A stretch of 47,369 nucleotides of DNA from Parcubacteria group bacterium GW2011_GWC1_45_13 (lineage in GTDB: Bacteria > Patescibacteriota > Minisyncoccia > UBA11713 > 2-01-FULL-45-33), in NCBI GenBank assembly GCA_001001285.1, contig LCKG01000006.1, forward strand, positions 1-47,369, written 5' to 3'. The translations under genes and the position numbers were made by a program. Position 1 is the first letter of the stretch. Each line of letters opens with the position of its first letter. This document shows, piece after piece, positions 3,721-47,369 of this stretch. The notes under the pieces were generated by a model that was not told where the DNA came from, ran no database searches, and saw only the letters and a list, made by a program, of their open reading frames with translations.

Positions 3721-3726
3721 AGCACA

Positions 3727-5336: not shown

Positions 5337-5417
5337 AATGTGTATTAAAAAATTAAAAATATTTATACGATTAATATACACAGGTTATTTAAAACATTCG
5401 TTACCAAATCCTTAAAA

Positions 5418-5449: not shown

Positions 5450-5471
5450 ATACTTAATTATAATAAATTTT

Positions 5472-9001: not shown

Positions 9002-9053
9002 TTGGCCTATTATAGAAGATTTTTTGCTTTTATGATAGGGTGAAAATAATCTT

Positions 9054-11396: not shown

Positions 11397-11525
11397 GATC
11401 TTACTGTAGCAAGCTTAAACAACATTTGTCCACTTGCACAATTTGCGGGGTCTGTTTGCGTTTAACCCCCAGATCCTTATTATTGATATATGCCTACTAC
11501 CCTAAAAAAACTATGTTTGCGGCAC

Positions 11526-11536
11526 GAGAGAGAGAG
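11526..11536. repeat. (GA)5G dinucleotide tract between an ATG and the large surface-protein ORF
   Basis: Sequence gagagagagag. ATG at 11513 reads ATG TTT GCG GCA CGA GAG AGA GAG TAA. See the finding at 11513-11595. Confidence 0.9.
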
Positions 11537-11592
11537 TAAAAGCCGCCCGCCTGTCGGCGAGGCAGGCCGCGCTGATATTCTGCGCAGTTTTT

Positions 11593-14325: not shown

Positions 14326-14350
14326 TGAATTTGAGGGCGTCTTTTGTGGA

Positions 14351-14382
14351 ATGTCCAAAGCTCGGTTTTGGACATTTGTGTC
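14351..14382. terminator. hairpin between convergent genes (bidirectional terminator candidate)
   Basis: ATGTCCAAA (14351-14359) pairs with TTTGGACAT (14367-14375): a 9-bp stem and 7-nt loop, followed by TTGTGTCTT. Confidence 0.55.
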
Positions 14383-14943
14383 TTACGGCAGTTGTGCGTT
14401 TGAATAGACCTCCTGTACGTCGTCGTGGTCGTCTAGCGCGGAGAGGAGCGCGTCAAACTTTTTTGTATCCGTTTCTGAAAGAGTTTGAGGAAATTTGGCG
14501 ATGAAACCGCCTTCGCTGGGGCTTCGGCGGTCAAAGGCCCACAGCGCCGAACCCTCAACTCCGAGTTTCGCGCCGTGCTCTAAAAGAAGATGTTTTATTT
14601 CATTTGTTGTTCGGTTGGAGTTGTCTGTTATAGCCGTAATGATGATCGCCGACCCACCGGGCCCATAGGCCTCATAAATAACCTCTTTTAATTCAGCACT
14701 TTCTTTGGCAGAGGCTTTTTTAATTGCCCGCTCAATATTATCCGACGGCATGTTTGCTTTTCGCGCTTCTTCTATCGTGGTTGTAAGCCGAGAATTTGTT
14801 TTCGGGTCCGGTCCTCCGCCAGCTGGCGGATTCGCAGCGGCAAGCGTAATCATGCGCGAAAGCTTTGAGAAAATTTTTCCTCGCTTAGCGTCGGTTGCGC
14901 CCTTTTTATATTTTATCTGCGCCCACTTAGAGTGGCCGGACAT
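14383..14943 (-). CDS. YebC/PmpR family DNA-binding regulator (compact form)
   Basis: MSGHSKWAQIKYKKGATDAKRGKIFSKL is the hallmark YebC N-terminus. Confidence 0.85.
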   Translation of the reverse strand: MSGHSKWAQIKYKKGATDAKRGKIFSKLSRMITLAAANPPAGGGPDPKTNSRLTTTIEEARKANMPSDNIERAIKKASAKESAELKEVIYEAYGPGGSAIIITAITDNSNRTTNEIKHLLLEHGAKLGVEGSALWAFDRRSPSEGGFIAKFPQTLSETDTKKFDALLSALDDHDDVQEVYSNAQLP

Positions 14944-15433
14944 TTTGTTTTTTGGCGTAGTCCAAGATTAAGTTTTTCGCCCCATAGACATTAGGCGCCT
15001 GCTCAATCTTGAAAGATTGTTCGCCGGCAGTCTGAATTATAATATTGCCGTATTTAAGAAAAGTGGCCATAATATTCGGTATTTCAATTGTAACATCCTG
15101 CACTCTTTCCAGCATAAATTCCGAAATCTCACGGTTGAAAAGCCCTTTTTGATCAATATCAATAATACGTTCCGAAGTTATAATCCAAATGTCCAAATAA
15201 TAATCAATCCAAAAAACAAAAATCACGAGGACCGCCGCCATCAAATAAATCAAAGCAAAAAACCAGAGCGCTATCTGCGGAATACCCAAGACTGATTCTA
15301 AAAAAGGAAAATAGGGAATAGCCAGAAGCGCAAAAATTAACAGAACGGCGCCGATTAAAAATCTCCAAAAGATCGCTATCCAATGGCGGTGGAGAACCAT
15401 CAAGATTTGTTCGTTTGGCAGTAAGTGAATCAT
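14927..15433 (-). CDS. membrane protein with bacterial PH (YdbT/bPH_2-like) domain
   Basis: Two N-terminal TM helices, then a soluble domain (ERIIDIDQKGLFNREISEFMLERVQDVTIE...GNIIIQTAGE) typical of bPH_2 proteins. Confidence 0.6.
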   Translation of the reverse strand: MIHLLPNEQILMVLHRHWIAIFWRFLIGAVLLIFALLAIPYFPFLESVLGIPQIALWFFALIYLMAAVLVIFVFWIDYYLDIWIITSERIIDIDQKGLFNREISEFMLERVQDVTIEIPNIMATFLKYGNIIIQTAGEQSFKIEQAPNVYGAKNLILDYAKKQNVRPL

Positions 15434-15627
15434 AGTTTCAAGCTAAAAAATAATGCCAAAGAAATAATATTGAGTACGGCAATCGTCACCAAAAAAATCC
15501 AGAGGATCCATTTATAAGAATCCTGCGGCATGGAATATTGTTTTACGTGCCACAAAATTGAAAGCACGACAGCCCAATAAACCGCCAAAAAAAGAATGTA
15601 TATAACCAGCGCCACGATAAAGCCCAT
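15430..15627 (-). CDS. small two-TM membrane protein (hypothetical)
   Basis: 65 aa with two hydrophobic helices. Its stop overlaps the start of the downstream PH-domain gene (4-nt overlap). Confidence 0.45.
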   Translation of the reverse strand: MGFIVALVIYILFLAVYWAVVLSILWHVKQYSMPQDSYKWILWIFLVTIAVLNIISLALFFSLKL

Positions 15628-15643
15628 AAGATTATAATAACAC

Positions 15644-16678
15644 TTATATCAATTTCTGTTGGTCTTGTTTCGGCGCCGTGAGCCCCAAATGCTCATAGGC
15701 TCTCGGGGTAGCTAAGCGCCCTCGGGGAGTGCGTTCCAAAAATCCCAACTGCATCAAATAAGGTTCGTAGACTTCTTCAATGGTGTCATCTTCCTCCATT
15801 ATAGAAGCGGCGATGGTTTGGATTCCCACTGGGCCGCCGCCAAATTTTTTAATAACCGTATCCAAAATTTTTCTATCAATGGATTCCAATCCCAGCTCGT
15901 CAATTTCTAAAAGCTTCAAAGCTTCCTTAGCCAGGGGTACCGTGATTATTCCGTCGCCTTTTACTTCAGCGTAGTCCCGAGCGCGTTTTAAAAGGCGATT
16001 AGCTATACGCGGGGTAAATCTGGAGCGCGAGGCAATTAAGGGAATGGCCAAGCTATCAATTTTTACTCCCAAAATTTCCGCGCTTCTTTTTATAATGCGT
16101 TCAATATTTTCTTCAGTATAAAAATCCAATCTGAAAGACCCTCCCGAAAAGCGTGATCTTAAAGGCGAAGAAAGTAAAGCAATGCGCGTGGTGGCCGCGA
16201 CCAATGTGAAGGAAGGAAGTTCCAATTGGATGGTGCGAGCCGACGGGCCTTTTCCTATGATAATATCCAAGGAGCGGTTTTCCATTGCCGGATATAAAAT
16301 TTCCTCAATAAGTTTATTTAAACGGTGCGCTTCGTCTATAAATAAAATATCTCCCGGGGAAAGATTTGTTAGAATAGAAGCCAAATCGCCAACTTTCTCA
16401 ATCGCCGGCCCGGATGTAATTTTAATTTGGCTGGAAGTTTCTTTTGCTACCAAATGCGCCAGCGTTGTCTTGCCCAAACCAGCCGGACCGTAAAAAAGCA
16501 AATGTTCCAAAGGCTCGCTTCTTTTTTTAGCAGCCTCGATTAAAATTTTAAGGTTCTTTTTAATACTTTCCTGGCCGACATATTCGTCAAAAGATTTTGG
16601 GCGCAACGCCAAATCCAGCGAGAGATCGTCGCTCCGTTTTTTGGGGCTTAATTGGTTTCCAGATTCATTACTTGACAT
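15644..16678 (-). CDS. ruvB: Holliday junction branch migration ATPase RuvB
   Basis: [12 protein letters not shown], Walker A ([11 protein letters not shown]), Walker B ([10 protein letters not shown]), and the C-terminal winged helix ([18 protein letters not shown]). Confidence 0.96.
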
Positions 16679-34925: not shown

Positions 34926-36122
34926 ATGCTTGATAATATCCTTGCTTTTATTAAAAAATTTATTCCGGTGCCGGTTTTTAATTTGTTTCAACCTTTTTAT
35001 CATTTGTGTCTGGCGTATCTCGCGGCTGCGATCTACGGATTTCCGGCGCGCCGGTTGAAAATTGTGGGAGTCACTGGCACCAATGGAAAATCAACGGTGG
35101 TGCATTTGATAAGTTCTATTTTGGAAGAGGCCGGAGAGAAAGTCGCATCAGTTTCTTCTTTGCGTTTCCGGGTAAATCAACAAGAAGAAAAAAATACTTT
35201 GAAAATGACCATGCCGGGAAGATTCAAGCTCCAGAAATTTTTACGGGAGGCAGTCTGGGCCGGATGCAAATATGGAATTATAGAAATAACATCTGAGGGC
35301 ATAAAACAATACCGGCACGTAGGTATTGTTTTTTACATGGCGGTGCTTACCAATATGACTCCGGAGCATATTGAATCGCACGGAACTTTTGAAAAATACC
35401 GCGCGGTGAAAGCAGAGCTTTTTAAAAGAGCCAAAATCCATGTTTTAAACGGAGAAGATCCTTCTATTGAATATTTTCTTAAAATTCCTGCCCAAAACCG
35501 CATTATCTACTCAAAAAAAGATCTTCCTCCGAATGTACATCTTAAACTTCTGGGTGAATTCAATTTGGAAAACGCCGTGGCAGCGTTCCATGCCGCGAAA
35601 CTTCTGGGCATAGAGTTTAACGCCATCAAACGCGCCTTGGAGAGCGTTAGGGGCGTGCCGGGTAGATTGGAGTTTATGCAAAAAGAACCCTTCTTGGTAG
35701 TGGTGGATTATGCGCACACGCCGGACGCGCTGGAAAAAGTTTACGAGACTTTAGGTGGAAATTTAATTTGTGTTTTGGGTTCGGCCGGCGGAGGAAGGGA
35801 TAAGTGGAAAAGGCCGGAAATGGGAAAAATCGCTGACAAATTCTGCAAAAAAATTATTTTAACCAATGAGGACCCGTATGATGAGAATCCGGAAGCAATT
35901 TTGGCGGAGGTGGAATGTGGCATCGCCCAAAAAAACAAGCTCCAGAAAATTCTGGACCGCAGCGAAGCTATCCGCGAAGCGATAAAATCCGCCAAAGCAG
36001 GAGACACCGTAATCATCACCGGCAAAGGCGCCGAGCCGTGGATTATGGGCCCCAACGGCGCAAAAATTCCTTGGGATGACAGGGAGGTTGTAAGAGAAGA
36101 GCTAGCTATCGCGCAAAAATAA
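34926..36122 (+). CDS. murE: Mur ligase family protein (MurE-like, lacking the N-terminal domain)
   Basis: GVTGTNGKSTV P-loop and DYAHTPDALEKVY, a MurE-type motif. The expected DNPR motif is replaced by TNEDPY. Confidence 0.65.
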   Translation: MLDNILAFIKKFIPVPVFNLFQPFYHLCLAYLAAAIYGFPARRLKIVGVTGTNGKSTVVHLISSILEEAGEKVASVSSLRFRVNQQEEKNTLKMTMPGRFKLQKFLREAVWAGCKYGIIEITSEGIKQYRHVGIVFYMAVLTNMTPEHIESHGTFEKYRAVKAELFKRAKIHVLNGEDPSIEYFLKIPAQNRIIYSKKDLPPNVHLKLLGEFNLENAVAAFHAAKLLGIEFNAIKRALESVRGVPGRLEFMQKEPFLVVVDYAHTPDALEKVYETLGGNLICVLGSAGGGRDKWKRPEMGKIADKFCKKIILTNEDPYDENPEAILAEVECGIAQKNKLQKILDRSEAIREAIKSAKAGDTVIITGKGAEPWIMGPNGAKIPWDDREVVREELAIAQK

Positions 36123-36277
36123 AAAAAGCCCAGCGATTCTGATGCTAGGCTCCACGGAAATTTATCTCATAACGGAAGGGAAGATAATGGCGGAAGCGGT
36201 GTTTTTTCTTTCATTTTTATTTCGTCTAGTTGTCCATCGCAGATACCGATAATAAACACACCGTTTACATCTTTTAA

Positions 36278-36493
36278 CTACCTTATCTTTATGTCAAAAT
36301 ATTTATCTTTCCCATCCTGTACTAGGAGAGCTTCTTTTACCTCAGGATCTTCCGGCGGCAGTACTGGCGCGAGTTTTGTTTGGGCTTGGTCTACCGAATC
36401 AGCTTCTACAACAAAGAGATGCGGGTCGCTCCACGCCGTCCAGTGATGCATTCCAATGAAAGGAATAAAAACTTCTACAAGAAATAGGCTCAT
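36278..36493 (-). CDS. hypothetical small protein
   Basis: 71-aa ORF with a strong SD (AAGGAGGGTGCTATATG). No recognisable motif. Confidence 0.5.
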   Translation of the reverse strand: MSLFLVEVFIPFIGMHHWTAWSDPHLFVVEADSVDQAQTKLAPVLPPEDPEVKEALLVQDGKDKYFDIKIR

Positions 36494-36531
36494 ATAGCAC
36501 CCTCCTTATTTTTTCATTTCCCGTTTGGGAT

Positions 36532-36560
36532 TTGTGATAACATAATCCATTTCGTATAAT
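36532..36560 (+). promoter_or_regulatory. sigma70-type promoter (TTGTGA-17 nt-TATAAT)
   Basis: Hexamers at 36532-36537 and 36555-36560 with an exact 17-nt spacer, upstream of the hydrolase gene, which has an SD (GAAGGAGGAGG). Confidence 0.5.
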
Positions 36561-36638
36561 ACTCCAGTAATTCAAGAAGTCAAGTTGCAAAAAATGTAAG
36601 ATGATGCTAAAACAAATGAAGAAGGAGGAGGACGCTTT

Positions 36639-37343
36639 ATGGAAAAATTTTGGGTTGAAACACATGAGAATGGTGTTGAAAACAAAAAAGCAATTTTGAT
36701 TTTCCCGCACTGGGGAGCGCAACTCTGGCAGTATCAATTATTCGCGAAGTGGTTTTCAGGTTTTCGCACAATTATTTTTCATTGTCCGGATTCGCTTTTA
36801 AGTTCGGACATTGAGGCTACGTTTCGTAATTTTGATCTTTTGGAATCGGTGATTTTGAGCGATATCGGGCATTTAAAGAGCAAAGGCATTTACGATTTTA
36901 GTTTTTACGGAGCTAGCTTGGGAAGCGTTATGGCTTTGCGCGCCGCCAATATCTTAGCATTCGCGGACGGCAGGGTCGGCGGAGTAGTTGTAAATTTAAG
37001 TTGCGCTGATTTTCCGTTTGCGACTTGGAACGGCAGCGCGACAAAATCACTTAGGGAAGATTGGAGGAAAAATGGCGTAAGCTACTCAGAGGTAAATCAG
37101 GCATGGTCCTATCTTTCGCCCATTAACAATTTATCGCGCCTCAAGGAAACAAAAATATTATTTTTTGCTTCCAAAAATGATGCGGTTATGAATCCCCCAA
37201 ATGTTATGGGTTTAGCCGATACGTTTGCCAATTATTTTCCTAAAGCCGAAGTTCACACTAACGCTTTTTTAGGGCACTATTTGGGCGGCGCCAAGAATTT
37301 TCTGCGCCTGCGCACCATGAGAAACTTTTTAGAGAGGCCCTGA
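36639..37343 (+). CDS. alpha/beta hydrolase fold protein
   Basis: Nucleophile elbow G-A-S-L-G-S (FYGASLGSVMA). Late Asp/His candidates (SKNDAV, FLGHYL). Confidence 0.65.
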   Translation: MEKFWVETHENGVENKKAILIFPHWGAQLWQYQLFAKWFSGFRTIIFHCPDSLLSSDIEATFRNFDLLESVILSDIGHLKSKGIYDFSFYGASLGSVMALRAANILAFADGRVGGVVVNLSCADFPFATWNGSATKSLREDWRKNGVSYSEVNQAWSYLSPINNLSRLKETKILFFASKNDAVMNPPNVMGLADTFANYFPKAEVHTNAFLGHYLGGAKNFLRLRTMRNFLERP

Positions 37344-37394
37344 CCATCCGGCGGGGCTTTTTATTTTTAGTCCATTTTGTGATATTATAAATCT

Positions 37395-38162
37395 ATGGAC
37401 ATAAACGAATCAAAATACCTGTATATCAGGCCGCCGAAGGAAGCGCTTTGGGCGATGACAGTATTTTTGGCGCTGGCCAGCGTATTTATGGCGGTAAAAA
37501 TCAACGGCGAATGGCGCGGCTATGGCAGGACCATTCCGCCCAACACGATTATGGTTTCCGGCGAGGGAAAAGTTTTGGTAAAGCCGGATATCGCGGTTGT
37601 TAATATCGGAGTTATAAAAGAAGACGCTGATTTGGGAAAAGTTCAGCAAAACACGGCTGAAATTATGGGACAGCTCGCGAAATTTTTGAAAGAAAATAAA
37701 GTGGATGAAAAAGACATCAAAACAACTTCATACAGCATCAGCCCGCGGTATGATTATAAGGAAGGCGAGCAAAAACTGCGCGGTTATGAAGTTTTTCAAA
37801 ATCTTGAAGTGAAAATAAGGGACCTGGGAAAAGTCGGCGCGGTTCTTTCCGGCGCGGCCGCCCGCGGGGCGAACCAAGTCGGCTCCCTTACTTTTTCGGT
37901 GGACGACCCTAAAAAAGCCAAAGAGGAAGCGAGAGCCATTGCAATAAAAGACGCCAGAGAAAAAGCAGGCAGGCTTTCGGCGGATTTGGGAGTGAGTTTG
38001 AAAAAAATAGTAAACTACGGAGAATCGGGCGGAGGCGGGCCGCAGCCGATTTACGCGCAAGCTGATTTTGGATTTGGAAAGGGAGGAGGTTTTCCGGTTC
38101 CGGCGCCTTCCGGCGAAAATGAGATAATCATCACGGTTAATCTGACTTACGAAATAAAGTAA
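37395..38162 (+). CDS. SIMPL domain (DUF541) protein
   Basis: TM anchor, then IMVSGEGKVLVKPDIAVVNIGV...TTSYSISPRYDY...GYEVFQNLEVKIRDL, the SIMPL/BP26 pattern. Confidence 0.78.
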   Translation: MDINESKYLYIRPPKEALWAMTVFLALASVFMAVKINGEWRGYGRTIPPNTIMVSGEGKVLVKPDIAVVNIGVIKEDADLGKVQQNTAEIMGQLAKFLKENKVDEKDIKTTSYSISPRYDYKEGEQKLRGYEVFQNLEVKIRDLGKVGAVLSGAAARGANQVGSLTFSVDDPKKAKEEARAIAIKDAREKAGRLSADLGVSLKKIVNYGESGGGGPQPIYAQADFGFGKGGGFPVPAPSGENEIIITVNLTYEIK

Positions 38163-38165
38163 GGG

Positions 38166-38657
38166 ATGAAAATTTTTCTTGTTTTGCATAATATCCGGAG
38201 CTTACATAATGTCGGCTCCATTTTCCGGACGGCCGAAGGGCTGGGCGTTAAAAAAATATATTTAACGGGATACACGCCCGAACCGCGCGACATTTTTGGA
38301 AAACTCCGGAAAGATTTCGCAAAAACCGCGCTTGGCGCGGAAAAATACGCTGATTGGGCGCGGATTAAAAATATTCACGCGCTGATTAAACGCTTAAAGA
38401 AAGACAGAACTAAAATCGTCGCTTTGGAGCAGTCAAAAAATAGCATTCCACTTAGCTTACTTAGCAATCGGATTGCTAAACGGGACATTGCTTTAATTTT
38501 AGGCAACGAAATCAACGGCATCCCTAAAAGTGTGCTTCAAAAATGCGATAAAATTATAGAAATCCCAATGCACGGCAAAAAAGAATCGCTGAATGTTTCC
38601 ATAGCCGCAGGCATCGCGATTTACGAGCTTACTAACCTCCCTACAACCCCTCCCTAA
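38166..38657 (+). CDS. SpoU/TrmH family RNA 2'-O-methyltransferase
   Basis: HNVGSIFRTAEGLGV, LILGNEINGIP and IPMHGKKESLNVSIAAGIAIYEL are SPOUT motifs 1-3. Confidence 0.85.
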   Translation: MKIFLVLHNIRSLHNVGSIFRTAEGLGVKKIYLTGYTPEPRDIFGKLRKDFAKTALGAEKYADWARIKNIHALIKRLKKDRTKIVALEQSKNSIPLSLLSNRIAKRDIALILGNEINGIPKSVLQKCDKIIEIPMHGKKESLNVSIAAGIAIYELTNLPTTPP

Positions 38658-39087
38658 TTAAGGAGGGGACCCACTTTCATTCCCAATGACCCATGACACT
38701 TTTACGCTTTTTTGAGAGGGAGATATATATGACATACGCAGAAAAAGAACTTCAATCTTTCGGTTTTCATCGGGTGAGTCAAAAGCTAGACTGAGTGGGC
38801 TTTGAACAACAAGTAGTTCTTTCCATCGGTCACCTCAAGCTTCTATTCGATTGTATTTGTCCCGCATATCCTAGTATCAGAGCGCTTGGATGTCCACTTC
38901 ATCATGATGGCTCGGGTGGTTCTTGGCCAATAGAAGAGGCCAAAAAAATTCCGACAGCAATCGTATAATCATCACATCTTCTTTTTCGCCGCATGGTTCG
39001 CCCAGCGGTCTTTTCTTTTTCCTACTTCCCATGACGCTTTGTATTTTTTTATCCCCTTCTTTACAAGGAGGGGTGGAGGGGATGTAG

Positions 39088-40023
39088 TTAGTAACTTGTC
39101 TCCGTAACTAAATTTCCTGATTGGTCAAAAAGCTGGATGTTTTCGTGCCTATTGCCCCACATCTCGGCATTTTTGCCTAAATAAATTCTCCATTCCGGCT
39201 GGTTGAAATCATAATCATTTTTATGATCGGTCACGCACCCGGCATAGCTGGCGTGTTGCGAGACGAACTCGGCACAGTCGTTATTTATTCCGGTGTCGGC
39301 ATTTATCGTGGGCGAGACGCAGGAGCTTAAACTCTCAATATAATCTATGCATCTATTATTTAAATTTCTCGGCAAGGACAAATCCGATATCCGCGGGCAG
39401 GAAAAAGACATTGAGGGCGAAATATTTTTACCTTGCGCCAAATAACCAGAGCATTTGTTTATTTTAAAATTTTTGCCAAGCTGGCTTTCGCCAGTGGCTA
39501 TAATTGCGCGCTCGCCATAATTTAACGCGACACTATTTCCATATTCGTCTTTACCGATTGTTGCCAAAACTCTGTCTCTATTTTGAAGTTTCATGCCAGA
39601 AATAACCGCGGTTTGTTTATTGTCGTAATCAAAATTTTCCAAAGAAATATATTCTTGCGAGAAATCTCCGTAAGTAGCCCCACCGCTATTTATGCGGATG
39701 GCAAGTTTTTTAGGGGTGCTTGCCGGAGGCGCCGGCGATGGCGGAGTAGGCTGCGTCACCTTTTTAATGGGGTTTTGAATGATTGGCGGCGGCGTGGTTA
39801 TGTCTGGTAAAGTGAAAAAAGAGCTGTTTGTAGACTGGCTTGGCGGCACTGGAGACGGAGCCGCCTGGGAACCCGAAGTGCCCGCGGAGCCATGCTCTGG
39901 AAATTGTCCTGGGATCTGCGTTTGCTGGCTTTTTGGGAATAAGTTTAAATTTTTTCTTTGAAAACTAAAAACTATGCCAACGATGACTAGCACGAATATC
40001 AGCCACATGACATCTTTATTCAT
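39088..40023 (-). CDS. membrane-anchored secreted protein (hypothetical; possible lamin-tail-like beta-sandwich plus Cys-rich C-terminus)
   Basis: N-terminal TM, Pro/Ser-rich linker, EYISLENFDYDNKQTAVISGMKLQN resembling an LTD motif, and several conserved-looking Cys. Confidence 0.6.
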   Translation of the reverse strand: MNKDVMWLIFVLVIVGIVFSFQRKNLNLFPKSQQTQIPGQFPEHGSAGTSGSQAAPSPVPPSQSTNSSFFTLPDITTPPPIIQNPIKKVTQPTPPSPAPPASTPKKLAIRINSGGATYGDFSQEYISLENFDYDNKQTAVISGMKLQNRDRVLATIGKDEYGNSVALNYGERAIIATGESQLGKNFKINKCSGYLAQGKNISPSMSFSCPRISDLSLPRNLNNRCIDYIESLSSCVSPTINADTGINNDCAEFVSQHASYAGCVTDHKNDYDFNQPEWRIYLGKNAEMWGNRHENIQLFDQSGNLVTETSY

Positions 40024-40027
40024 ATTT

Positions 40028-40035
40028 TGTATAAT
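40028..40035 (+). promoter_or_regulatory. extended -10-like TGTATAAT upstream of doxX
   Basis: It ends 6 nt before an ATG at 40042. That ATG opens a 21-codon ORF (MSEKPKEGELFPNIERKIKPC) whose stop (40105-40107) overlaps the doxX ATG (40101). Confidence 0.35.
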
Positions 40036-40100
40036 ACGCTTATGAGCGAAAAACCGAAAGAGGGCGAGCTTTTTCCGAACATAGAGCGCAAAATAAAACC

Positions 40101-40502
40101 ATGCTAAGTATTTTGCCGCAACTTCTTGATTTCCAATTTTATGTGCCGCTCCTTTTGAGGCTTGCTTTGGGAGCGATTTTTTTGGCGCATGGCTGGCAAA
40201 AATTGAGGTCCGATAAAATCCAACTCGCCGGCTGGCTGGAATCGATGAAATTCAAGCCTGGAGAGTTTTGGGCATGGGTCGTCACTTTGGTTGAATGCTT
40301 GGGCGGCATTGCTTTGGTTGTTGGGCTGTTCATGCAATTGACCGCTTTGATTTTGGCCATTCAATTTATAGTTATAATTTTGTATATCAAGCGCGGCCAG
40401 AAATTTATCGGCGGGTGGGAGTTTGATTTTTTGATTTTTACGGCACTCATAGCATTGTTGGTTTTAGGCCCCGGCGCCTGGGCGTTTGACTTGCCGCTTT
40501 AG
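40101..40502 (+). CDS. DoxX family membrane protein
   Basis: LLRLALGAIFLAHGWQKL motif and four TM helices. Confidence 0.8.
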   Translation: MLSILPQLLDFQFYVPLLLRLALGAIFLAHGWQKLRSDKIQLAGWLESMKFKPGEFWAWVVTLVECLGGIALVVGLFMQLTALILAIQFIVIILYIKRGQKFIGGWEFDFLIFTALIALLVLGPGAWAFDLPL

Positions 40503-40522
40503 GAATATGGTATAATTGGTTT

Positions 40523-41539
40523 ATGGCTAATCTTAAAACAAGTCTTTTGGTCGCTGGCGCGGTTGTGTTATTGGTGGCGGTTTTTTGGTGGATTCAGCCC
40601 AATTTTTGGAAGAAAGAGCCTGTTAAAGAGCCTGTTAAGGTACAATATCAGGTTGCGGCAGGCGGGGCCAATGAACTGCGGGCGCAGGTGATTAAAAAAT
40701 ACGGCATTGATAAAAAGCATGGCATTGATTTTGAGATTGTCACCACCGATCCGGGCGAATTGGAAAGAAGAATAGCTAACGGCGAATCTTATTTGGCGGA
40801 TATCTCGCCATTCACTATTTTAGCGGCGAAGCAAAAGAATATAAATTTGTTGGTCATTAGCCCGTCGGTGCTTTACCGCTATCATGTGCTTGTTTCTATC
40901 GACTCTCACATAGCTTCTGTTCAGGAATTGAAGGGGAAGAAAATCGGAACACAGCCGAAAGTTACCGCAGCTTATATTGCCACCGCCATAGCGCTCAAGG
41001 CGGGAGGCATTGACGTTGAAAAGGATGTCAGTATGGTTTTTGGAAATATTCCTCAAACTGCGGCTGCGGTAGAAAAAGGTGAGGCCGACGCGGCTATGGT
41101 GGCTTATCCACCCGCGGCCTCCCTTATTGCAAGCGGAAAATTCAAGAGCGCGGCGGCATTAGGAGATATTTGGAGCCAAAAAGAAGGCGGGCTTGTCCTT
41201 CCGTTCGTTGCGCTCGTTGCCAACAAAGACTGGTATGAGCACAATAAAGACACGGCAAAAAGAGCGGTGGAGACCATTTTGGACGCGGGGCGTTTTATCC
41301 AGGAGCGGCCTAGCGCGATTTCCGAGCTCACCGATTATCTTAATAAATATAATCTTAATACGCCACCGATTAGAGCATTGCTTGAAACAAATAGCCCAAA
41401 ACAGTTTCCTAATAATTACGGCGAGAAAGAAGTAATGGCGTTTGAAAGATATTTTGCGCAGGCCAAGGAGCTGAAGATTATACCAGCCGATGCTCCAATG
41501 GATAGTTTCCTTGTGAAGCCCTCCGAGCTCGGGCTTTAA
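40523..41539 (+). CDS. NMT1/THI5-like substrate-binding protein, third orphan paralog
   Basis: LKGKKIGTQPKVTAAYIATAIALKAGGIDVEKD and KGEADAAMVAYPP parallel the 27585 and 28560 proteins. Confidence 0.65.
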   Translation: MANLKTSLLVAGAVVLLVAVFWWIQPNFWKKEPVKEPVKVQYQVAAGGANELRAQVIKKYGIDKKHGIDFEIVTTDPGELERRIANGESYLADISPFTILAAKQKNINLLVISPSVLYRYHVLVSIDSHIASVQELKGKKIGTQPKVTAAYIATAIALKAGGIDVEKDVSMVFGNIPQTAAAVEKGEADAAMVAYPPAASLIASGKFKSAAALGDIWSQKEGGLVLPFVALVANKDWYEHNKDTAKRAVETILDAGRFIQERPSAISELTDYLNKYNLNTPPIRALLETNSPKQFPNNYGEKEVMAFERYFAQAKELKIIPADAPMDSFLVKPSELGL

Positions 41540-41581
41540 ACCGGCTTTATAAAGCAATCTCTTTGTGGTATAAATTATCCT

Positions 41582-42172
41582 ATGGATGACGGGGATATTG
41601 TATTTGATATAGAAACGAAGAAATCTTTTGACGAAGTGGGCGGGAGAAATAATTTCGGGAAATTGGGTGTATCAGTTGTCGGCGCATATATTTACGGGCC
41701 TGGCCAATATTTAACTTTTGAAGAACACGAAATTCCTGAATTTGAAAAATTGCTCCAAAAAGCTGGCCGCGTGGTCGGTTTTAATATCCACCATTTTGAC
41801 CTTGAGGTTTTGCGTCCTTATATCTCCTGGGACGTTAGAAAACTTTCCACGCTTGATTTAATGGATGATGTGAAAAAATCGCTTGGCCATCGGCTTTATT
41901 TAGATAGCTTAGCCGAGGCGACCTTGGGCGTCCGAAAAAGCGGAGACGGAATGCAAGCCCTGAAGTGGTACAAAGAGGGCAAAATTGATGAGATTAAAAA
42001 GTATTGCCTAAAAGACGTTGAGATCACAAAGAATCTTTACGACTTCGGCAGAAAAAACGGCCACGTTTTGTTTTATTCAAGGAGCGCCGGCGGGCGAGTG
42101 GCTATTCCTGTTGCATGGGAAAAGCAAAGCGTGCTAGAACTAAATAAAGATGCCCAACTCAAAATTTTTTAA
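41582..42172 (+). CDS. RNase H-like DEDDy 3'-5' exonuclease family protein (PolB-exo-like)
   Basis: Exo I (FDIET), Exo II (GFNIHHFDL) and Exo III (YCLKDV) motifs. Confidence 0.65.
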   Translation: MDDGDIVFDIETKKSFDEVGGRNNFGKLGVSVVGAYIYGPGQYLTFEEHEIPEFEKLLQKAGRVVGFNIHHFDLEVLRPYISWDVRKLSTLDLMDDVKKSLGHRLYLDSLAEATLGVRKSGDGMQALKWYKEGKIDEIKKYCLKDVEITKNLYDFGRKNGHVLFYSRSAGGRVAIPVAWEKQSVLELNKDAQLKIF

Positions 42173-42632
42173 TATATTAGGAGCGGAGCTGGGCCTGGAC
42201 GAAGTCGTCCAGGCAATTTACGATTTTATAACATTGAAACCGCAGAGAAAATATAAAATAATAGTGGGGACGGATTCGGCCGCGAGGAGCGAAGTGAATT
42301 TTGTGACAGCTGTCACTATCTGGCGGGTTGGTAATGGAGGAATACATTTCTGGACACGCTCGGAGAAAACGCACTGCCACGATTTACGCGAGCGGATTTA
42401 CAAGGAAACGATTCATTCCATAACTTTGGCGCAGGAACTCCGCGGGCGGCTCAAAGAAAAATTGGGGGATGAGTTTTTCTGGAACGATCAGATTCATATT
42501 GACGTTGGCGAAAACGGTCCGACAAAAGATTTTATAGAAACAGTTGTAGGCATGGTTAGGGGCTACGGCTTTGACGCCGTAATCAAGCCCAATTCTTTCG
42601 GGGCTTCAATAGTGGCGGATAGGCACACGTAA
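42150..42632 (+). CDS. YkuK/DUF458-like RNase H-fold protein
   Basis: YKIIVGTDSAARSEVNFVTAVTIWRVGNGG...RIYKETIHSITLAQELR resembles the DUF458 pattern. Overlaps the previous gene by 23 nt. Confidence 0.65.
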   Translation: MPNSKFFNILGAELGLDEVVQAIYDFITLKPQRKYKIIVGTDSAARSEVNFVTAVTIWRVGNGGIHFWTRSEKTHCHDLRERIYKETIHSITLAQELRGRLKEKLGDEFFWNDQIHIDVGENGPTKDFIETVVGMVRGYGFDAVIKPNSFGASIVADRHT

Positions 42633-42633
42633 A

Positions 42634-42666
42634 TCACTTGGGTGTCGGACACCCAAGTGATTTTTT
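42634..42666 (+). terminator. rho-independent terminator
   Basis: TCACTTGGGTGTC-g-GACACCCAAGTGA (13-nt arms) followed by TTTTTT, directly after the stop at 42632. Confidence 0.85.
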
Positions 42667-42740
42667 GTCCTCGTAGCTCAACTGGATAGAGCGTTGGCCT
42701 CCGAAGCCAAAGGTTGCGCGTTCAAATCGCGCCGAGGGCA
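42667..42740 (+). tRNA. tRNA-Arg (anticodon CCG)
   Basis: Manual cloverleaf: acceptor GTCCTCG/CGAGGGC, D arm GCTC-AACTGGATA-GAGC, anticodon arm TTGGC-CTCCGAA-GCCAA, T arm GCGCG-TTCAAAT-CGCGC, discriminator A. No encoded CCA. Confidence 0.93.
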
Positions 42741-42748
42741 CAAAAATT

Positions 42749-42777
42749 TTGACGCCGAAATTTTTAATTTATATTAT
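42749..42777 (+). promoter_or_regulatory. sigma70-type promoter (TTGACG-17 nt-TATTAT)
   Basis: Hexamers at 42749-42754 and 42772-42777 with an exact 17-nt spacer, upstream of the gene at 42813. Confidence 0.5.
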
Positions 42778-42812
42778 ATGAATATACCCTATTTTGGGGG
42801 AAGAAAATTTTT

Positions 42813-43580
42813 ATGAATAAATTTTTTCCAACAAGCACAATCACAGGCTTACTGGTAGGAACTGTATTTGCAGGTCTAAACTTTCTCAGATTTTTTTGTT
42901 CGGAGTCTACATCATTCACCTGTGCTTTCCCTAAAGCCTTCGCTTACTATTCACCTGTATGGTGGCTATATGCAACTATTAATTTTAGCCTTGGTCCTTT
43001 TATTGCCCTAGCTCTTACAATAGTTATCTTTGGTTTCCTTGGTGCGATTGTAGGTAAAATACTTGGCTTTTTTTCGGAATCGAGGTTATTTAAATATGTA
43101 CTGTGGATAGTTCTGATTTTGATCGTATTGCTGTATGTCGGGGCGACTATTCAAAGAACCTCAAAAGAATTAGGAAGCTCAAATAGAATTCAGATACAAG
43201 CTAATAAGGAATGGGAAATTCTGCAATCCGTTCTGTCTGGCAATTCTACGGAGATGGTTTGTTCGGACGGAGACCTCGCTAAGAATACTTGCTATATCAT
43301 GGCCGCTTTAAAGTACGAAAACCCGGAAACGTGTTTTAAATTATCTTACGCCGCCGAAAGTCAGGCTGGGTCGGAACTTTGCAGAAATCTCGCCGAAGAA
43401 GCCAGAAATAACCAATTATCTAGGGATTCGTGCGATAAAGATAAATTATCGGGCGAAAATAAATTAAAAGGCCCTAATAAACACCAAGATTGTTATTTTA
43501 ACCTTGGAATATATTTTCAAGACAAATCTATCTGTGCTAAATCATTTCAGGAACATGGCTGTGAAAGATATATTCAGTAG
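42813..43580 (+). CDS. integral membrane protein with Cys-rich soluble C-terminal half (hypothetical)
   Basis: Several N-terminal TM helices. The C-terminal half contains multiple Cys. No family recognised. Confidence 0.6.
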   Translation: MNKFFPTSTITGLLVGTVFAGLNFLRFFCSESTSFTCAFPKAFAYYSPVWWLYATINFSLGPFIALALTIVIFGFLGAIVGKILGFFSESRLFKYVLWIVLILIVLLYVGATIQRTSKELGSSNRIQIQANKEWEILQSVLSGNSTEMVCSDGDLAKNTCYIMAALKYENPETCFKLSYAAESQAGSELCRNLAEEARNNQLSRDSCDKDKLSGENKLKGPNKHQDCYFNLGIYFQDKSICAKSFQEHGCERYIQ

Positions 43581-43676
43581 GAATGCGTTTGTAAAAGAAT
43601 TTGCCGCCAAAGAAAAACTTGTCCCGACTAATTCAAGAATACTGCACCATAATCCAACTGAAAGATTTTTTTCCCG

Positions 43677-43715
43677 CCAAACAATGGACTTCCATTGCGG
43701 AAGCCCATTGTTTGG
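43677..43715. repeat. strong 39-nt hairpin (11-bp + 4-bp stems)
   Basis: CCAAACAATGG-ac-TTCC-attgc-GGAA-gc-CCATTGTTTGG. No adjacent downstream T-tract on either strand. Confidence 0.8.
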
Positions 43716-43792
43716 AAAATAAAAAACCTGTTAGTTTCTTATTGGTGGGATTATACGCTAATTTACTAACCTATTTTACCAAGAATTATTGA

Positions 43793-44110
43793 GGTTTACC
43801 TAGTCATACGGGTAGTCATTCGCCCTATCTCCGTATGACTACGGTTTACCCCTTCACGCACCCCTTCACTCGCTCGGTGCTGGGTTGAAGGGGTACGCCG
43901 CCTCAATCTCCCCGCCAATGCTTGTCTTTTTGCTCTCGCACCCCAATATTCCCAAGTCCGACTTCACTCCGCTACGCCCCCATTCCACGCTTGTGCTGTT
44001 TCCCACAATATCCGCCTTCGGCGGATTGGCTCGCCGCCCTGCTGGTCGGCTCGCTGAACGCGCCGGAATTCCTCCCCCCACAAAATTTATAGCTCGAGGC
44101 CACATGGCCG
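43793..44110. other. GC-rich, ORF-poor, repeat- and hairpin-dense segment (candidate structured RNA or relic mobile-element end)
   Basis: Direct GGTTTACC repeats (43793-43800, 43843-43850) bracket the 11-bp hairpin TAGTCATACGG/CCGTATGACTA (43801-43811 / 43831-43841). Tandem CCCCTTCAC (43849-43857, 43861-43869) pairs with TTGAAGGGG (43885-43893). A CCGCC-TTC-GGCGG hairpin lies at 44012-44024. Both strands are open (compositional), with no start context. Confidence 0.5.
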
Positions 44111-44117
44111 AGAGACA

Positions 44118-44450
44118 TTATTGATTTTTTAAATATTTCTTAATTCGTTCGCGGTCTTCATTTTCCTTGTCGCCTTTATAATATAACTCGATAAATTCAA
44201 TCTGTTGATTTTGTTTGAAGTAAGCATAGATAATCCGCAAAGATGTTCCTTTCAAGTATCTACAAAATAACCGTGCTTTAATAATATGCAAAACCTCGGT
44301 TTGCATTATGACATTAAAATGTTTGCTGTTTCCAAGCGGAACAGCAGAAACTACATTCCGAAATTCTTGCAGATCGTTTAAGAGTGATTTGTATTTTTTA
44401 CCAAGCCACTTGAGTTCTTTTTGAAATTCCGGCAGTTCATTAAAGTTCAT
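44118..44450 (-). CDS. RelE/ParE-superfamily-like small toxin
   Basis: 110 aa. ...GTSLRIIYAYFKQNQQIEFIELYYKGDKENED resembles the C-terminal beta-strands of RelE/ParE/Gp49-type toxins. Overlaps the upstream antitoxin-like gene by 11 nt. Confidence 0.55.
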   Translation of the reverse strand: MNFNELPEFQKELKWLGKKYKSLLNDLQEFRNVVSAVPLGNSKHFNVIMQTEVLHIIKARLFCRYLKGTSLRIIYAYFKQNQQIEFIELYYKGDKENEDRERIKKYLKNQ

Positions 44451-45207
44451 CGCTATAGTTTCTTACGGAGTATCTTTCATCGCGGTAAAAGACGCTCTCA
44501 TAAGAAAGCGGCTGCCCTTCTGTTGCGGATTTCCACGGAATATCCTCGTGCGAGTAATTTTCTATCTCCGCGGCGTTCTTGTCTGAAAGGCGAGCCAACA
44601 CATCATCAATGTGGTCAATTTCGCGTGCCGAAAGTATATCGAGATTTGGACGCTTTCGCGGGAGATATTTTTTCTGGCTGTATTTGAAATACTGACTTTT
44701 TACAGCTTCCAACTCTCCTTGTTCTTGCATATCCTTAACGATCGCACCAAGCTCAATTGAAGTAGGACCATGGTGGTTCTTAATATATGTCGCTCCCATC
44801 AAGTTTTCTTCGAACTTCTCGTAATAATCAAAATCAATGAAGTAGAGTAACTTGTGCAATACCGTCTCGCCAACATTTGGTTTACTGCCTACCTTGCCTA
44901 GGACATACAGTAATACCTGTTTGAATTTATCAAGATTTTTTTCTGTAACACGAATTTGCAAGTCGTCTGATTTTTTTGCGGACTCCTTTTCAATAGTTAC
45001 ATTGTGTTTTGGCTCCTTCCCCTCTAAAAACTTCTCAAAAGGGATATCAAAAACCTCTGCCAGTTTTTTGGCTTCGGTAATCGTTAAGTCGCGCTCACCT
45101 TGTTCAATCTGCATATAGGTTGGGCGGGAAATTTTGAGCGCGGATGCTAAAAATTCCTGCGGCAGATTACGCTTTTTACGTTGTTCTTGAATGAATTTAG
45201 CAAGCAT
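44440..45207 (-). CDS. XRE-family HTH fused to Panacea (DUF4065/SocA-like) antitoxin domain
   Basis: N-terminus RKKRNLPQEFLASALKISRPTYMQIEQGERDLTITEAKKLAEVF (HTH_3). C-terminal part LHKLLYFIDFDYYEKFEENLMGATYIKNHHGPTS...DVLARLSDKNAAEIENYSHED fits the DUF4065 pattern. Confidence 0.78.
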   Translation of the reverse strand: MLAKFIQEQRKKRNLPQEFLASALKISRPTYMQIEQGERDLTITEAKKLAEVFDIPFEKFLEGKEPKHNVTIEKESAKKSDDLQIRVTEKNLDKFKQVLLYVLGKVGSKPNVGETVLHKLLYFIDFDYYEKFEENLMGATYIKNHHGPTSIELGAIVKDMQEQGELEAVKSQYFKYSQKKYLPRKRPNLDILSAREIDHIDDVLARLSDKNAAEIENYSHEDIPWKSATEGQPLSYESVFYRDERYSVRNYSDEL

Positions 45208-45211
45208 GATT

Positions 45212-45682
45212 TTAAGTTGATGATTCGCTAATTTTTCCGACTTTTTTTTCTAATCGCTGGATCATATCCCAAACCAAACTGTCATATTCTTTGTAGATGC
45301 GTAGAACCTTGCTCTCAACCACTTCGGTATCTTCTGATAATAAATTATGGATATATTCATTCCGCTTCGCTTTAAATTGCTCAAGCTTTTTGAATTTCTC
45401 TGTATCAATTACTCCAAGTAAATAAAGGTCATTAATCGCGTTATCGTAGCCATACCACTTATTTCTTTTTCCCTTTAATGCACTTAAGTTAGCTTTACCA
45501 TCCAATAGCTTTAGTCCATAACTCACAAGCACTCCTTCCAGCAAAGCTGTCTGCAGTAGGAACGCTTCAATGTGTCTTGTTTCCTTTCCTTTTCTTCGTC
45601 TTGTCCGGCTGTGCGCCCCTGCCCGAATATAAAGACGTTTGATGTCCTCTATGCTCGCTGAAGTTTTTGACCTCGCGGACAT
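45212..45682 (-). CDS. HEPN-like protein (R-x4-H motif), hypothetical
   Basis: 156 aa, helical-looking, with KRNEYIHN (R-N-x3-H) as in HEPN RNase active sites. There are 3-nt and 4-nt gaps to the neighbouring genes. Confidence 0.45.
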   Translation of the reverse strand: MSARSKTSASIEDIKRLYIRAGAHSRTRRRKGKETRHIEAFLLQTALLEGVLVSYGLKLLDGKANLSALKGKRNKWYGYDNAINDLYLLGVIDTEKFKKLEQFKAKRNEYIHNLLSEDTEVVESKVLRIYKEYDSLVWDMIQRLEKKVGKISESST

Positions 45683-45685
45683 AGT

Positions 45686-45973
45686 TTATTTATCTTTGTT
45701 CTTTGGCGGTTTGTACTCGCGGATTTCTCTACGCTCAAGGCTTTCAGCAGCTTCTTTGCTCGGTGTTGTCTTATACTGAAACCGCGTGCCTCCTTCAAAC
45801 TCGCCTTTGTGCTCCGCAATCCGGTCATCTAAGCGGCCGCCTTTTGCCTTGCCGATGTAAAGAACATCTCCCTCGGCGTTTTTAATGCGATACACGCCCG
45901 GCTTATCGCCCGGAACCTTTTCAATGTTTCCCTTCGTGATCGTTCTCACGGGGCTAAATTTCTTCATGGCCAT
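45686..45973 (-). CDS. stand-alone GIY-YIG nuclease domain protein
   Basis: GVYRIKNAEGDVLYIGKA (GIY-10 aa-YIG), the following Arg (RLDDRIAEH), and SLERREIREYKPPKN (Glu/Asn region). Confidence 0.75.
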   Translation of the reverse strand: MAMKKFSPVRTITKGNIEKVPGDKPGVYRIKNAEGDVLYIGKAKGGRLDDRIAEHKGEFEGGTRFQYKTTPSKEAAESLERREIREYKPPKNKDK

Positions 45974-46130
45974 AGTGGTTGAAAAAAATTATGGTTAATT
46001 AATACGACTATACTGTCAGTATGGGGGATGCAGGATTCCTTGTCAAGTGGTATGTAAAGAAGTTATACATGGTTAAAACAGCCTCCTTATGTGTCCAATC
46101 CAAACGGGTGAGCCGGAAGGAGGAGATCCG

Positions 46131-47117
46131 CTATGAGAAAAAGTCAACAACTTTCTCCTGTGGATAGCGATATTCGGTTTTGTGTCCCATCATCATCCAT
46201 ACCACATTGACCAGCTGACGACGCAGGCAGACCAGAGCCTGCGCTTTTGTTTTGCCTTCGGATATCTTTCTCTTGAAATACACTCTGGCAGCGTCATTGC
46301 CCGACCTTGAGATTTGCGATAATGCCATTCGGTGAAAGGAACGATTGAGTCGTCGGTTGCCCGACTTTGTTTTTCTCCAGCGTATGGTCTTGCCCGAGGA
46401 GTGTTCCCTCGGAGCGCAGCCGGCATACTTAGCCAATGCTCCCGGAGAATGAAAACGAGCAATATCTCCAATCTCACCGATCATCTCGGCGGCGATGACC
46501 GTGCCGCAGCCGGAAGCGGTTGAGAGTGTTTGCTTGTTTTCTTTCATCATTGTTTCAAGTTCTTCTTCAATCTCTTGGATTTCTTCCCGCAGATCAAGGA
46601 TGCGGCGCAAAGCTCGTTTCGTTCGTTGCGCGAGTATCGCGTCAGTATTTTTTGGAATTGAGCGCGACCAATAGCGTAAGGCTTTCTTGGAGAACGGGTC
46701 TTTGAACTTGGCGCGATAGCCGGTGTTGTGGATCCGATGGAGCAGGATGTGGAGCTGATTCTTGAGCCGTGAACGTTCTTTGACCAGCCACTCTCTTTCC
46801 AGTGATAACTCTCGTATTTGCTTGGCTTCTTGGGCCTCTTCGGTTAATGTATAGACAGGTAGCGTGTCAATCTTTTGGATCATGACTTCTGCTACCCCTT
46901 GCGCATCCAGAGAATCCAGCCCGAAAGAAGGAACGAGTCCTGATTTTTCTGCCTCGACCTTTGTTTTTTCAACCAAGGAGATGAAATCCTCGGCTTCATT
47001 GCCGATGGTCATCTCAAATATCTTTTTCCCGAACGGCGAGAGCGCTACCGCCGTATGGGTATCTTTGTGAACATCCACGCCCACAAAGAGGGTTTGCGAA
47101 CGATGTATCGTTTGCAT
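46131..47117 (-). CDS. IS110-family transposase (DEDD RuvC-like N-domain + C-terminal IS116/IS110/IS902 domain)
   Basis: MQTIHRSQTLFVGVDVHKDTHTAVAL N-terminus from the internal ATG at 47117. C-terminal GCGTVIAAEMIGEIGDIARFHSPGALAKYAGCAPREHSSGKT motif. The track's TTG start at 47297 adds 60 atypical residues. Confidence 0.9.
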   Translation of the reverse strand: MQTIHRSQTLFVGVDVHKDTHTAVALSPFGKKIFEMTIGNEAEDFISLVEKTKVEAEKSGLVPSFGLDSLDAQGVAEVMIQKIDTLPVYTLTEEAQEAKQIRELSLEREWLVKERSRLKNQLHILLHRIHNTGYRAKFKDPFSKKALRYWSRSIPKNTDAILAQRTKRALRRILDLREEIQEIEEELETMMKENKQTLSTASGCGTVIAAEMIGEIGDIARFHSPGALAKYAGCAPREHSSGKTIRWRKTKSGNRRLNRSFHRMALSQISRSGNDAARVYFKRKISEGKTKAQALVCLRRQLVNVVWMMMGHKTEYRYPQEKVVDFFS

Positions 47118-47369
47118 AGATTTTGTTATGATTAGTTTACCTTCCCGCTGTCCGACGAAACAGCAGGCGTGCTTGAGCAGAAATCCCAGTATGCGAGAGT
47201 CATTCCCCGAAAGGGCGACCAATCCGCTATTTGTGCATTGCTCGTGCACAGAGGCGGAGCGGAACAATCCCCTATGGGTCTTTCCCAGCCCTTTCAAAGA
47301 AAGGGCTGGACGACAGGGTCAGGGTAAGTAATGCCGCTTCGCTTCTCTACACTCTACCGGAAAACAAAA
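47118..47369 (-). ncRNA. candidate IS110 bridge-RNA-type non-coding region (5' of the transposase)
   Basis: Dense hairpins read on the minus strand: CCAGCCCTTTC-ttt-GAAAGGGCTGG (47286-47310), TGTGCA-n7-TGCACA (47232-47250), and CCTGCTG-n10-CAGCGGG (47144-47167). The position matches where IS110-group elements encode their guide RNA. Confidence 0.35.

Follow-up and report, generated by a model that had tools for sequence, protein, structure and literature searches.

This work concerns a four-gene cassette on contig LCKG01000006.1 of Parcubacteria group bacterium GW2011_GWC1_45_13, which was analysed over its full 47,369 nucleotides (the window). The original prediction, made from the letters of the DNA, had described four contiguous minus-strand open reading frames (ORFs) encoding a GIY-YIG nuclease, a HEPN-like protein, a Panacea-domain antitoxin and a RelE/ParE-like toxin, and had raised the possibility that the one antitoxin serves all three effectors. 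The coordinates of the ORFs are all reproduced; in the order of transcription, 3 nt and 4 nt separate the first three genes, and the last two share 11 nt. The genes and the promoter that precedes them are as follows.

45686-45973, minus strand: gene for a stand-alone GIY-YIG nuclease of 95 amino acids (aa), the first cargo gene.
45212-45682, minus strand: gene for a HEPN-like protein (DUF4145/DUF86-like) of 156 aa, all-helical as modelled, the second cargo gene.
44440-45207, minus strand: panA, encoding an antitoxin of 255 aa with an XRE-type helix-turn-helix (HTH) and a Panacea/DUF4065 domain.
44118-44450, minus strand: putative toxin gene, encoding T110, a divergent RelE/ParE-superfamily (HigB-2-like) protein of 110 aa.
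46016-46071, minus strand: conserved sigma-70-type promoter with TTTACAT repeats on its flanks, the presumed operator of the PanA HTH.
46046-46041 and 46023-46018, minus strand: the -35 box (TTGACA) and the -10 box (CATACT) of this promoter.

We interpret the operon, with modest confidence, as a PanAT-type toxin–antitoxin (TA) pair, made up of PanA and a RelE/HigB-2-like toxin, that carries a two-gene nuclease cargo gated by the antitoxin. The four genes share a single promoter. Aligned upstream regions from 85 distinct loci yield the conserved consensus TGTatAanTtnTTTACATtnctnTTGACAAanAatttTACATngcnTAtAcT, and each of 87 loci yields a single match to an nhmmer promoter profile. This match lies 3–50 nt 5′ of panA in 30 two-gene loci and ~800 nt 5′ of panA, just before the GIY-YIG gene, in every four-gene locus with upstream sequence; the copy in the window is the best sigma-70 match of its region (10/12). 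No second copy was found with nhmmer between the 156-aa gene and panA, and the four genes thus form one transcription unit read from the usual panA promoter, as had been proposed at the outset. The TTTACAT repeats that flank the -35 box are the likely operator of PanA, given its XRE-type HTH. Ratios of non-synonymous to synonymous substitution rates (dN/dS) of 0.09 for the GIY-YIG gene, the lowest of the four, and of 0.15, 0.15 and 0.17 for the other three indicate purifying selection on all of them, the values being approximate since dS is near saturation.

Both domains of PanA pass their Pfam thresholds (HTH_3, E 1e-12; SocA_Panacea, E 2.5e-16 and 61 bits against a cut-off of 25.7), in agreement with the predicted fusion of an XRE-type HTH to a Panacea domain. 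The partner T110 is more divergent. Broader profiles of its family match structures of Vibrio cholerae HigB-2 at marginal E-values of 0.009 and 0.004, over ~45 residues of the C-terminal beta-sheet of the T110 family ('KGKGKRGGSRIIYYF...LLTIYGKNE'), and a profile from the narrow T110 alignment (A2) matches nothing in the PDB. Among 88 T110 relatives, the commonest sub-threshold Pfam matches are PF06296 RelE (7/88) and ParE_toxin (5/88), and some relatives are named RelE in UniRef and JGI. The RelE/ParE call of the original prediction gains from the profile match at E 0.004 and from these sub-threshold matches to PF06296 and ParE_toxin, and lacks a match above any cut-off. A T110-like domain also forms the extreme C-terminus (residues 3216–3330) of P0468, a haemagglutinin-repeat protein of 3,334 aa. 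This is the layout of contact-dependent-inhibition toxins and lends independent support to the T110 fold being a toxin.

PanA and T110 form a widespread and self-sufficient type II pair. In all 80 of 80 T110-anchored genome loci, drawn from many phyla, panA stands immediately 5′ of the toxin gene with an 8-nt overlap (8–11 nt across loci); in 77 of these 80 the PanAT pair stands alone, and in the other three it is accompanied by the GIY-YIG and 156-aa genes. The T110-type family comprises 1,259 clusters at 90% identity (2,126 for a 124-aa variant) and 794 representatives at 50% identity, and spans Patescibacteria, Nitrospirales, Brocadiales, Actinomycetota, Omnitrophota and Proteobacteria at 60–89% identity. 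A single Patescibacteria contig (L022) bears tandem, divergent PanA–toxin modules at 2639-3758 and 5244-6327; the proteins of the second pair are 48% and 35% identical to those of the window.

The co-evolution of the four genes separates them into two blocks. Spearman correlations of pairwise identities, calculated over the 16 complete four-gene loci, are 0.44–0.70 within a first block of GIY-YIG protein, 156-aa protein and PanA HTH, 0.64–0.75 within a second block of PanA linker, Panacea domain and T110, and only -0.05 to 0.38 across the blocks. For the Panacea domain in particular, rho is 0.65 with T110 and 0.10–0.19 with the GIY-YIG and 156-aa proteins. The same division is seen on comparing locus L082 with the window: the GIY-YIG proteins are 100% identical, the 156-aa proteins 94% and the HTHs 87%, whereas the Panacea domains are only 53% and the toxins only 42% identical, and DNA homology stops near panA codon 150. 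Judged by these identities, the Panacea domain tracks its toxin, as a neutraliser would its target, and is indifferent to the GIY-YIG and 156-aa proteins.

These data bear directly on the proposal that PanA alone serves as antitoxin to three effectors, namely a DNase, an RNase and an mRNA interferase. Panacea domains do neutralise many unrelated toxin folds (PMC8832971), and all four genes lie behind one promoter. Nonetheless, the Panacea domain co-evolves with T110 only, and in L082 the Panacea–toxin block has been swapped while GIY-YIG and 156-aa proteins stay 94–100% identical. In addition, PanAT is autonomous in 77/80 loci, the GIY-YIG and 156-aa genes persist without panA in two loci (L105 and L111), and unrelated cargo, namely HNH and DUF2188 proteins, occupies the same position in other operons. 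Control of three effectors by one PanA is therefore highly improbable, and this part of the original prediction is not borne out.

The first cargo protein is confidently assigned. It passes the Pfam GIY-YIG threshold (E 4.1e-7; score 30.7 bits, cut-off 22.6), and 22 distinct homologues all retain the catalytic residues, namely the Tyr of GxY, the Tyr of YxG, Arg, Glu and Asn, in keeping with the earlier call. The protein also matches DUF7508 above cut-off (E 4.7e-7), a family of which a literature search found no mention, and in NCBIfam it resembles the GIY-YIG modules of UvrC and of DEDD-exonuclease. By Pfam, its 95 aa consist of the catalytic domain alone, with no DNA-binding or specificity domain.

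The second cargo protein contains the motif KRNEYIH, whose R107-N108-x3-H112 positions do not vary among 28 homologues, the most distant at 43% identity. The conservation of R-x4-H, which had been proposed as a check on the HEPN call, is thus borne out. Weak DUF4145 matches cover the motif region in 12/28 family members (best E 0.009); the window protein matches no Pfam family of the HEPN clan above cut-off. An AlphaFold model is all-helical with a predicted local distance difference test score (pLDDT) of 88. Its top Foldseek matches are YutE/DUF86 and HepT of MntA-HepT (probability 0.87–0.90, template modelling (TM) score ~0.5, E 0.3–0.5), and its best PDB neighbours are the HEPN proteins 1ylm, 6m6u, 5yep and 7ae8, all weak (E 0.3–2.5, TM score ~0.5). 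Foldseek against viral structures was uninformative, and PDB sequence and profile searches returned chance-level matches only. One UniRef title within the 90% cluster of the protein reads 'DUF86 domain-containing protein'. The HEPN call accordingly holds for the invariant motif and falls short in the sequence and fold matches, which lie below thresholds. The family is small (87 clusters at 90% identity); an identical protein is found on >20 groundwater contigs, and a near-identical relative is labelled Candidatus Taylorbacteria in UniRef. As a separate observation, a 155-aa ORF with R-N-x3-H (RLRNTMAH) lies directly 3′ of the toxin gene in the four-gene locus L055 (6340-6807), and is possibly another HEPN/Abi-like protein.

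Viewed from the 156-aa gene, the cassette is a consistent unit. Among 32 metagenomic loci anchored on this gene, the GIY-YIG gene lies upstream in 27 of the 28 with enough sequence and panA downstream in 30/32; including genomes, the order GIY-YIG, 156-aa gene, panA, toxin gene recurs in ~30 independent loci, which answers the question of gene-order conservation that had been raised at the start. In a second possible explanation of the operon, the GIY-YIG and HEPN-like proteins are their own toxin–immunity or TA pair, an analogue of HEPN-MNT (MNT, nucleotidyltransferase), that merely shares a promoter with PanAT as an independent module. The pair does occur without PanAT in L105 and L111, the latter retaining a similar promoter, and the 3-nt spacing of its genes suggests translational coupling; moreover, HEPN toxins are common, and HEPN proteins of the DUF4145 type are often coupled to DNases and restriction-modification (R-M) systems (PMC3710099). 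Against this, 28 of the 30 assessable pairs are joined to PanAT behind a single promoter, far above what independent modules would lead one to expect. Furthermore, neither protein resembles a known antitoxin, and the catalytic motifs of both are intact. Pfam reveals no MNT partner for the 156-aa gene, whose neighbours are the GIY-YIG gene and panA. We regard a self-contained GIY-YIG/HEPN-like TA pair as quite improbable. The fallback of the original prediction, two nested TA pairs, comes closer to the truth than its idea of three effectors under one antitoxin.

The interpretation as a PanAT pair with added cargo draws further on what lies between promoter and antitoxin gene elsewhere. Among 65 genome loci with a detectable promoter, this interval is empty in 30 and measures at least 55 nt in 35, with the following contents.

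70-aa HNH endonuclease: 12 loci, intact in 3–4 and otherwise as 3′ remnants (Pfam HNH, 1e-5).
100-aa partner protein: 3 loci, one of them counted under HNH too.
DUF2188 protein, intact or remnant: 6 loci (E 1.4e-20).
GIY-YIG and 156-aa genes: 3 loci.
3′ end of the 156-aa gene, left as a remnant and joined to the promoter: 2 loci (L010 and L047).
Unmatched sequence: 10 loci.

The region from operator to panA is hence a slot with gene turnover, and the GIY-YIG and 156-aa genes are one cargo among several. In L096 (6001-6467), L097 and L107, a frameshift splits the 156-aa gene and leaves the GIY-YIG, PanA and toxin genes intact, which is cargo decay in progress. The two-gene HNH cargo of L001 (4703-5241) places the 100-aa protein, which has a faint and non-significant GIY-YIG resemblance (E 0.054), 5′ of the 70-aa HNH protein; this cassette directly follows a type I HsdM-HsdS fusion gene.

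Turnover of this kind could also arise if the cargo were selfish. GIY-YIG and HNH are classic families of free-standing homing endonucleases, and homing-type nucleases might invade the promoter–panA junction or mobilize the cassette, ride on the addictive TA pair and decay once fixed. The sporadic presence of the GIY-YIG and 156-aa genes (3/80) among homologous cassettes resembles the distribution of homing endonucleases, as do the many loci with 3′ remnants of HNH, 156-aa and DUF2188 genes. The mosaic of cargo set against a coherent Panacea–toxin block agrees with such an origin, as does the 60–89% identity of the cassette between distant phyla. However, neither nuclease (95 aa and 70 aa) has a DNA-binding domain, the GIY-YIG protein has as its obligate partner a HEPN-like protein with an invariant RNx3H, and the GIY-YIG gene is the most constrained of the four (dN/dS 0.09). 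Moreover, the non-nuclease DUF2188 occupies the same slot, neither a target site nor cleavage of an empty site is demonstrable, and flanking repeats are confined to one lineage. A selfish origin of the cargo consequently appears unlikely to us.

Cargo-bearing cassettes reside in a distinctive neighbourhood. R-M or type IV restriction genes adjoin the cassette in 8 of 11 independent cargo-bearing lineages. The neighbours are a DNA methylase with a type III restriction subunit (L090), a DNA methylase (L097/L099), HsdR (L087), GmrSD_N+HNH (L101), HsdM-HsdS (L108), a GmrSD-like protein (L086) and a methylase (L105), and the lineage of the window completes the eight, with GmrSD_N+HNH and an EcoRI-like methylase in the reference scaffold L120. 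The neighbour in L002 differs, being HEPN_Cthe2314. As a rough control, the 119 nearest neighbours of two-gene loci include N6_Mtase, ResIII and Eco57I three times each and Methylase_S twice. In L120, the region past the cassette (11809-16445) encodes GmrSD_N+HNH, T5orf172/MUG113, the EcoRI-like methylase, a small HTH protein and a large serine recombinase of 514 aa before continuing into sigma-70 and housekeeping genes. With these flanking genes, the cassette belongs to a compact defence island that bears a recombinase and adjoins tRNA-Arg.

A phage-borne origin was considered and rejected, as phages, plasmids and viral contigs lack the cassette almost entirely: T110 relatives are found neither in cultured phages nor in PLSDB plasmids, the 156-aa protein neither in cultured phages nor on IMG/VR viral contigs, and the toxin has one distant match on the latter.

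From the families involved, we infer how a PanAT pair with antitoxin-gated cargo might operate. The Panacea domain would bind and neutralize the toxin, and the N-terminal HTH of PanA would repress the TTTACAT-flanked promoter. With PanA abundant, the toxin would be sequestered and the entire operon repressed. Depletion of PanA on stress or infection would allow the toxin to cleave mRNA and the promoter to open, and the GIY-YIG DNase and HEPN-like protein would then be expressed as additional DNA- and RNA-directed effectors. Such a role as extra effectors would fit the defence islands that hold cargo-bearing cassettes. The sequence data themselves establish the architecture of the operon with its one promoter, the variable slot, the block-wise co-evolution and the proximity to R-M genes.

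Several points weigh against this interpretation. A toxin that shuts down translation may leave the new cargo mRNA untranslated, and the frequent decay of cargo to remnants fits dispensable or selfish genes equally well. The RelE/HigB-2-type assignment of T110 is convergent but sub-threshold. Searched alone, T110 finds nothing useful in Pfam, NCBIfam, PADLOC or the PDB; its AlphaFold model, computed from alignment A2, has the order of two helices followed by a four-stranded sheet, but with a pLDDT of 62 is unusable, and Foldseek with this model was uninformative. The HEPN-like character of the 156-aa protein is suggested by four weak lines that agree and are all sub-threshold, with a DUF4145 score of 13.3 bits against a cut-off of 23.1 and weak Foldseek E-values of at least 0.3. 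Promoter and operator are consensus predictions, and promoters of Patescibacteria are poorly known. The 16 loci underlying the co-evolution analysis are a small set, and as loci are partly related, counts are non-independent. Finally, the R-M association could be mere co-location in islands.

A broader version of the same idea can be advanced tentatively. The PanAT pair may be a regulated chassis whose operator and antitoxin gene frame a defined slot for cargo, in which small nucleases (GIY-YIG with HEPN-like, or HNH) are interchangeable. Loss of the repressor would then both free an mRNA interferase and switch on effectors that degrade DNA or RNA. If true, this would amount to a modular abortive-infection design with several effectors, moving together with R-M islands in Patescibacteria and beyond. 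Its appeal lies in the combination, within a widely transferred PanAT family, of a fixed promoter and operator with a repeatedly reloaded nuclease slot, and gating of extra effectors by an antitoxin-repressor is testable. A comparative series is on hand (slot empty, HNH, GIY-YIG with HEPN-like, remnant), and the conserved operator suits DNA-binding assays. R-M adjacency is far commoner for cargo-bearing than for cargo-less cassettes. The proposed arrangement also offers a candidate role for two mostly 'hypothetical' protein families that are common in uncultivated groundwater bacteria.

Parts of this architecture are known. Pairs of PanA with HigB-2/RelE-like toxins, HTH-bearing PanAs and nuclease 'accessory' third genes have been catalogued (Kurata et al. 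2022, PMC8832971). The cassette resembles these PanAT pairs in the N-terminal HTH of its Panacea antitoxin, in the order of antitoxin then toxin with overlapping genes, in the HigB-2/RelE-like partner, and in a small partner within 100 nt whose pairing is conserved across species (80/80). It differs in having four genes, two of which, those for the GIY-YIG and HEPN-like proteins, fill a defined slot from operator to panA. The operational criterion of Kurata et al. admits operons of at most three genes, which excludes the four-gene cassette and takes in its two-gene relatives. More generally, PanAT surveys left out operons of more than three or more than two genes (PMC8832971; NetFlax, PMC10440598), and because such surveys stop at two or three genes, multigene TA variants are missed by design. 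Supplementary cluster T8 of Kurata et al. (Jettenia, Nitrospirae; antitoxin–toxin; gap -8) is probably the T110 family. Like V. cholerae HigB-2 of HigB-2/HigA-2 (PF06296), the best match of its family profile among solved structures, T110 is small and basic, with a helix–helix–strands order in its low-confidence model; yet the match is marginal (E 0.004–0.009, ~45 residues), the antitoxin is Panacea rather than HigA, and the gene order is reversed.

With HEPN toxins of the HepT/DUF86 and DUF4145 kinds, the 156-aa protein shares Rx4H, a polar residue after the Arg and, as modelled, an all-helical bundle. DUF4145, a member of the HEPN clan CL0291 in Pfam, has domains fused to, or co-operonic with, DNases and R-M systems (Anantharaman et al. 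2013, PMC3710099), a coupling that parallels the GIY-YIG and 156-aa genes sitting beside restriction genes. In contrast to these toxins, the 156-aa protein has a GIY-YIG protein as its partner instead of MNT, and its matches lie below family thresholds; that HEPN survey does not mention GIY-YIG at all. Three-component TA systems (paaR-paaA-parE, mazEF-mazG and toxin–antitoxin–chaperone; cited in PMC8832971) likewise add a conserved gene to the transcript of a type II pair. In the present cassette, the additional genes are interchangeable nucleases upstream of the antitoxin, not a regulator or chaperone. PADLOC-DB v2 holds no model for the GIY-YIG protein, the 156-aa protein or T110 and matches PanA to generic HTH models only, and a literature search found no paper combining GIY-YIG, HEPN and Panacea. 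The earlier remark that the architecture was not recognised as a named system is thus sustained for these three proteins and qualified by the prior catalogue of PanA with HigB-2-like partners.

The surroundings of the cassette in the window comprise the following features.

44082-46123, minus strand: segment of four genes and promoter enclosed by inverted repeats, delimited by homology breakpoints.
43742-44081, no strand: GC-rich structured repeat, an inverted-repeat arm, from RNA folding and repeat comparison.
46124-47369, minus strand: IS110-family insertion sequence that runs off the window (Pfam), with its transposase at 46131-47297.
42667-42741: tRNA-Arg, 1.4 kb from the cassette.

The brackets described in the original prediction, IS110 on one side and a structured element on the other, are recovered, as is the tRNA-adjacent setting. 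None of 100 shuffled sequences folds as well as the GC-rich element (~43742-44110; z = -4.9), for which Rfam has no matching family, whether at gathering or at permissive thresholds. The nature of the element is apparent from L120, which is free of the insertion sequence and 100% identical to window positions 35077-46123. There, two repeat arms of 418 nt (8666-9083 and 11127-11544) are 100% complementary and lie 2,043 nt apart, the segment between them corresponding to 44082-46123 of the window, and nine other assemblies have their homology breakpoints at 44081/44082 and 46123/46124. The repeat arm in the window lacks 73 nt (at 43838-43842) that are present in all others (L081, L082 and L114-L123), a deletion bounded by the 5-nt direct repeat GTAGT. 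The IS110 element (Transposase_20, 6e-22; DEDD_Tnp_IS110, 3e-14; Pfam) abuts 46123 exactly, where relatives have the second arm, and is missing from L120, L121 and L123, although these match the window at 100% identity in other respects. Its upstream non-coding end extends beyond the window, and a 31-nt stretch (46117-46147) recurs inverted, 3′ of the toxin gene in L086.

Relative to one and the same flank, the 2,043-nt segment faces one way in some assemblies and the other way in others. Because the perfect 418-nt repeat exceeds the read length, orientation is undecidable for short-read assemblers, and the reading of the two orientations as a real inversion was withdrawn; such an inversion of the cassette is possible. 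Flanking inverted repeats were not found in other lineages and were accordingly rejected as a general feature of the cassette.

Two further observations concern the boundaries of the cassette. In 11 of 60 scanned loci (L008, L010, L022, L032, L041, L047, L051, L052, L055, L057 and L067), the boundary has a tRNA gene, not always the same one, no more than ~310 nt away; this is several-fold above expectation by a rough estimate and suggests insertion beside tRNA genes. Of 89 loci, 10, belonging to several lineages, have the motif GGGGGG(A)AGGAATT(CC) 40–160 nt beyond the stop codon of the toxin gene (~0.2 expected), among them L001, L002, L004, L090 and L100-L102, and the copy of the motif in the window (44067-44081) marks the inner end of the inverted repeat.

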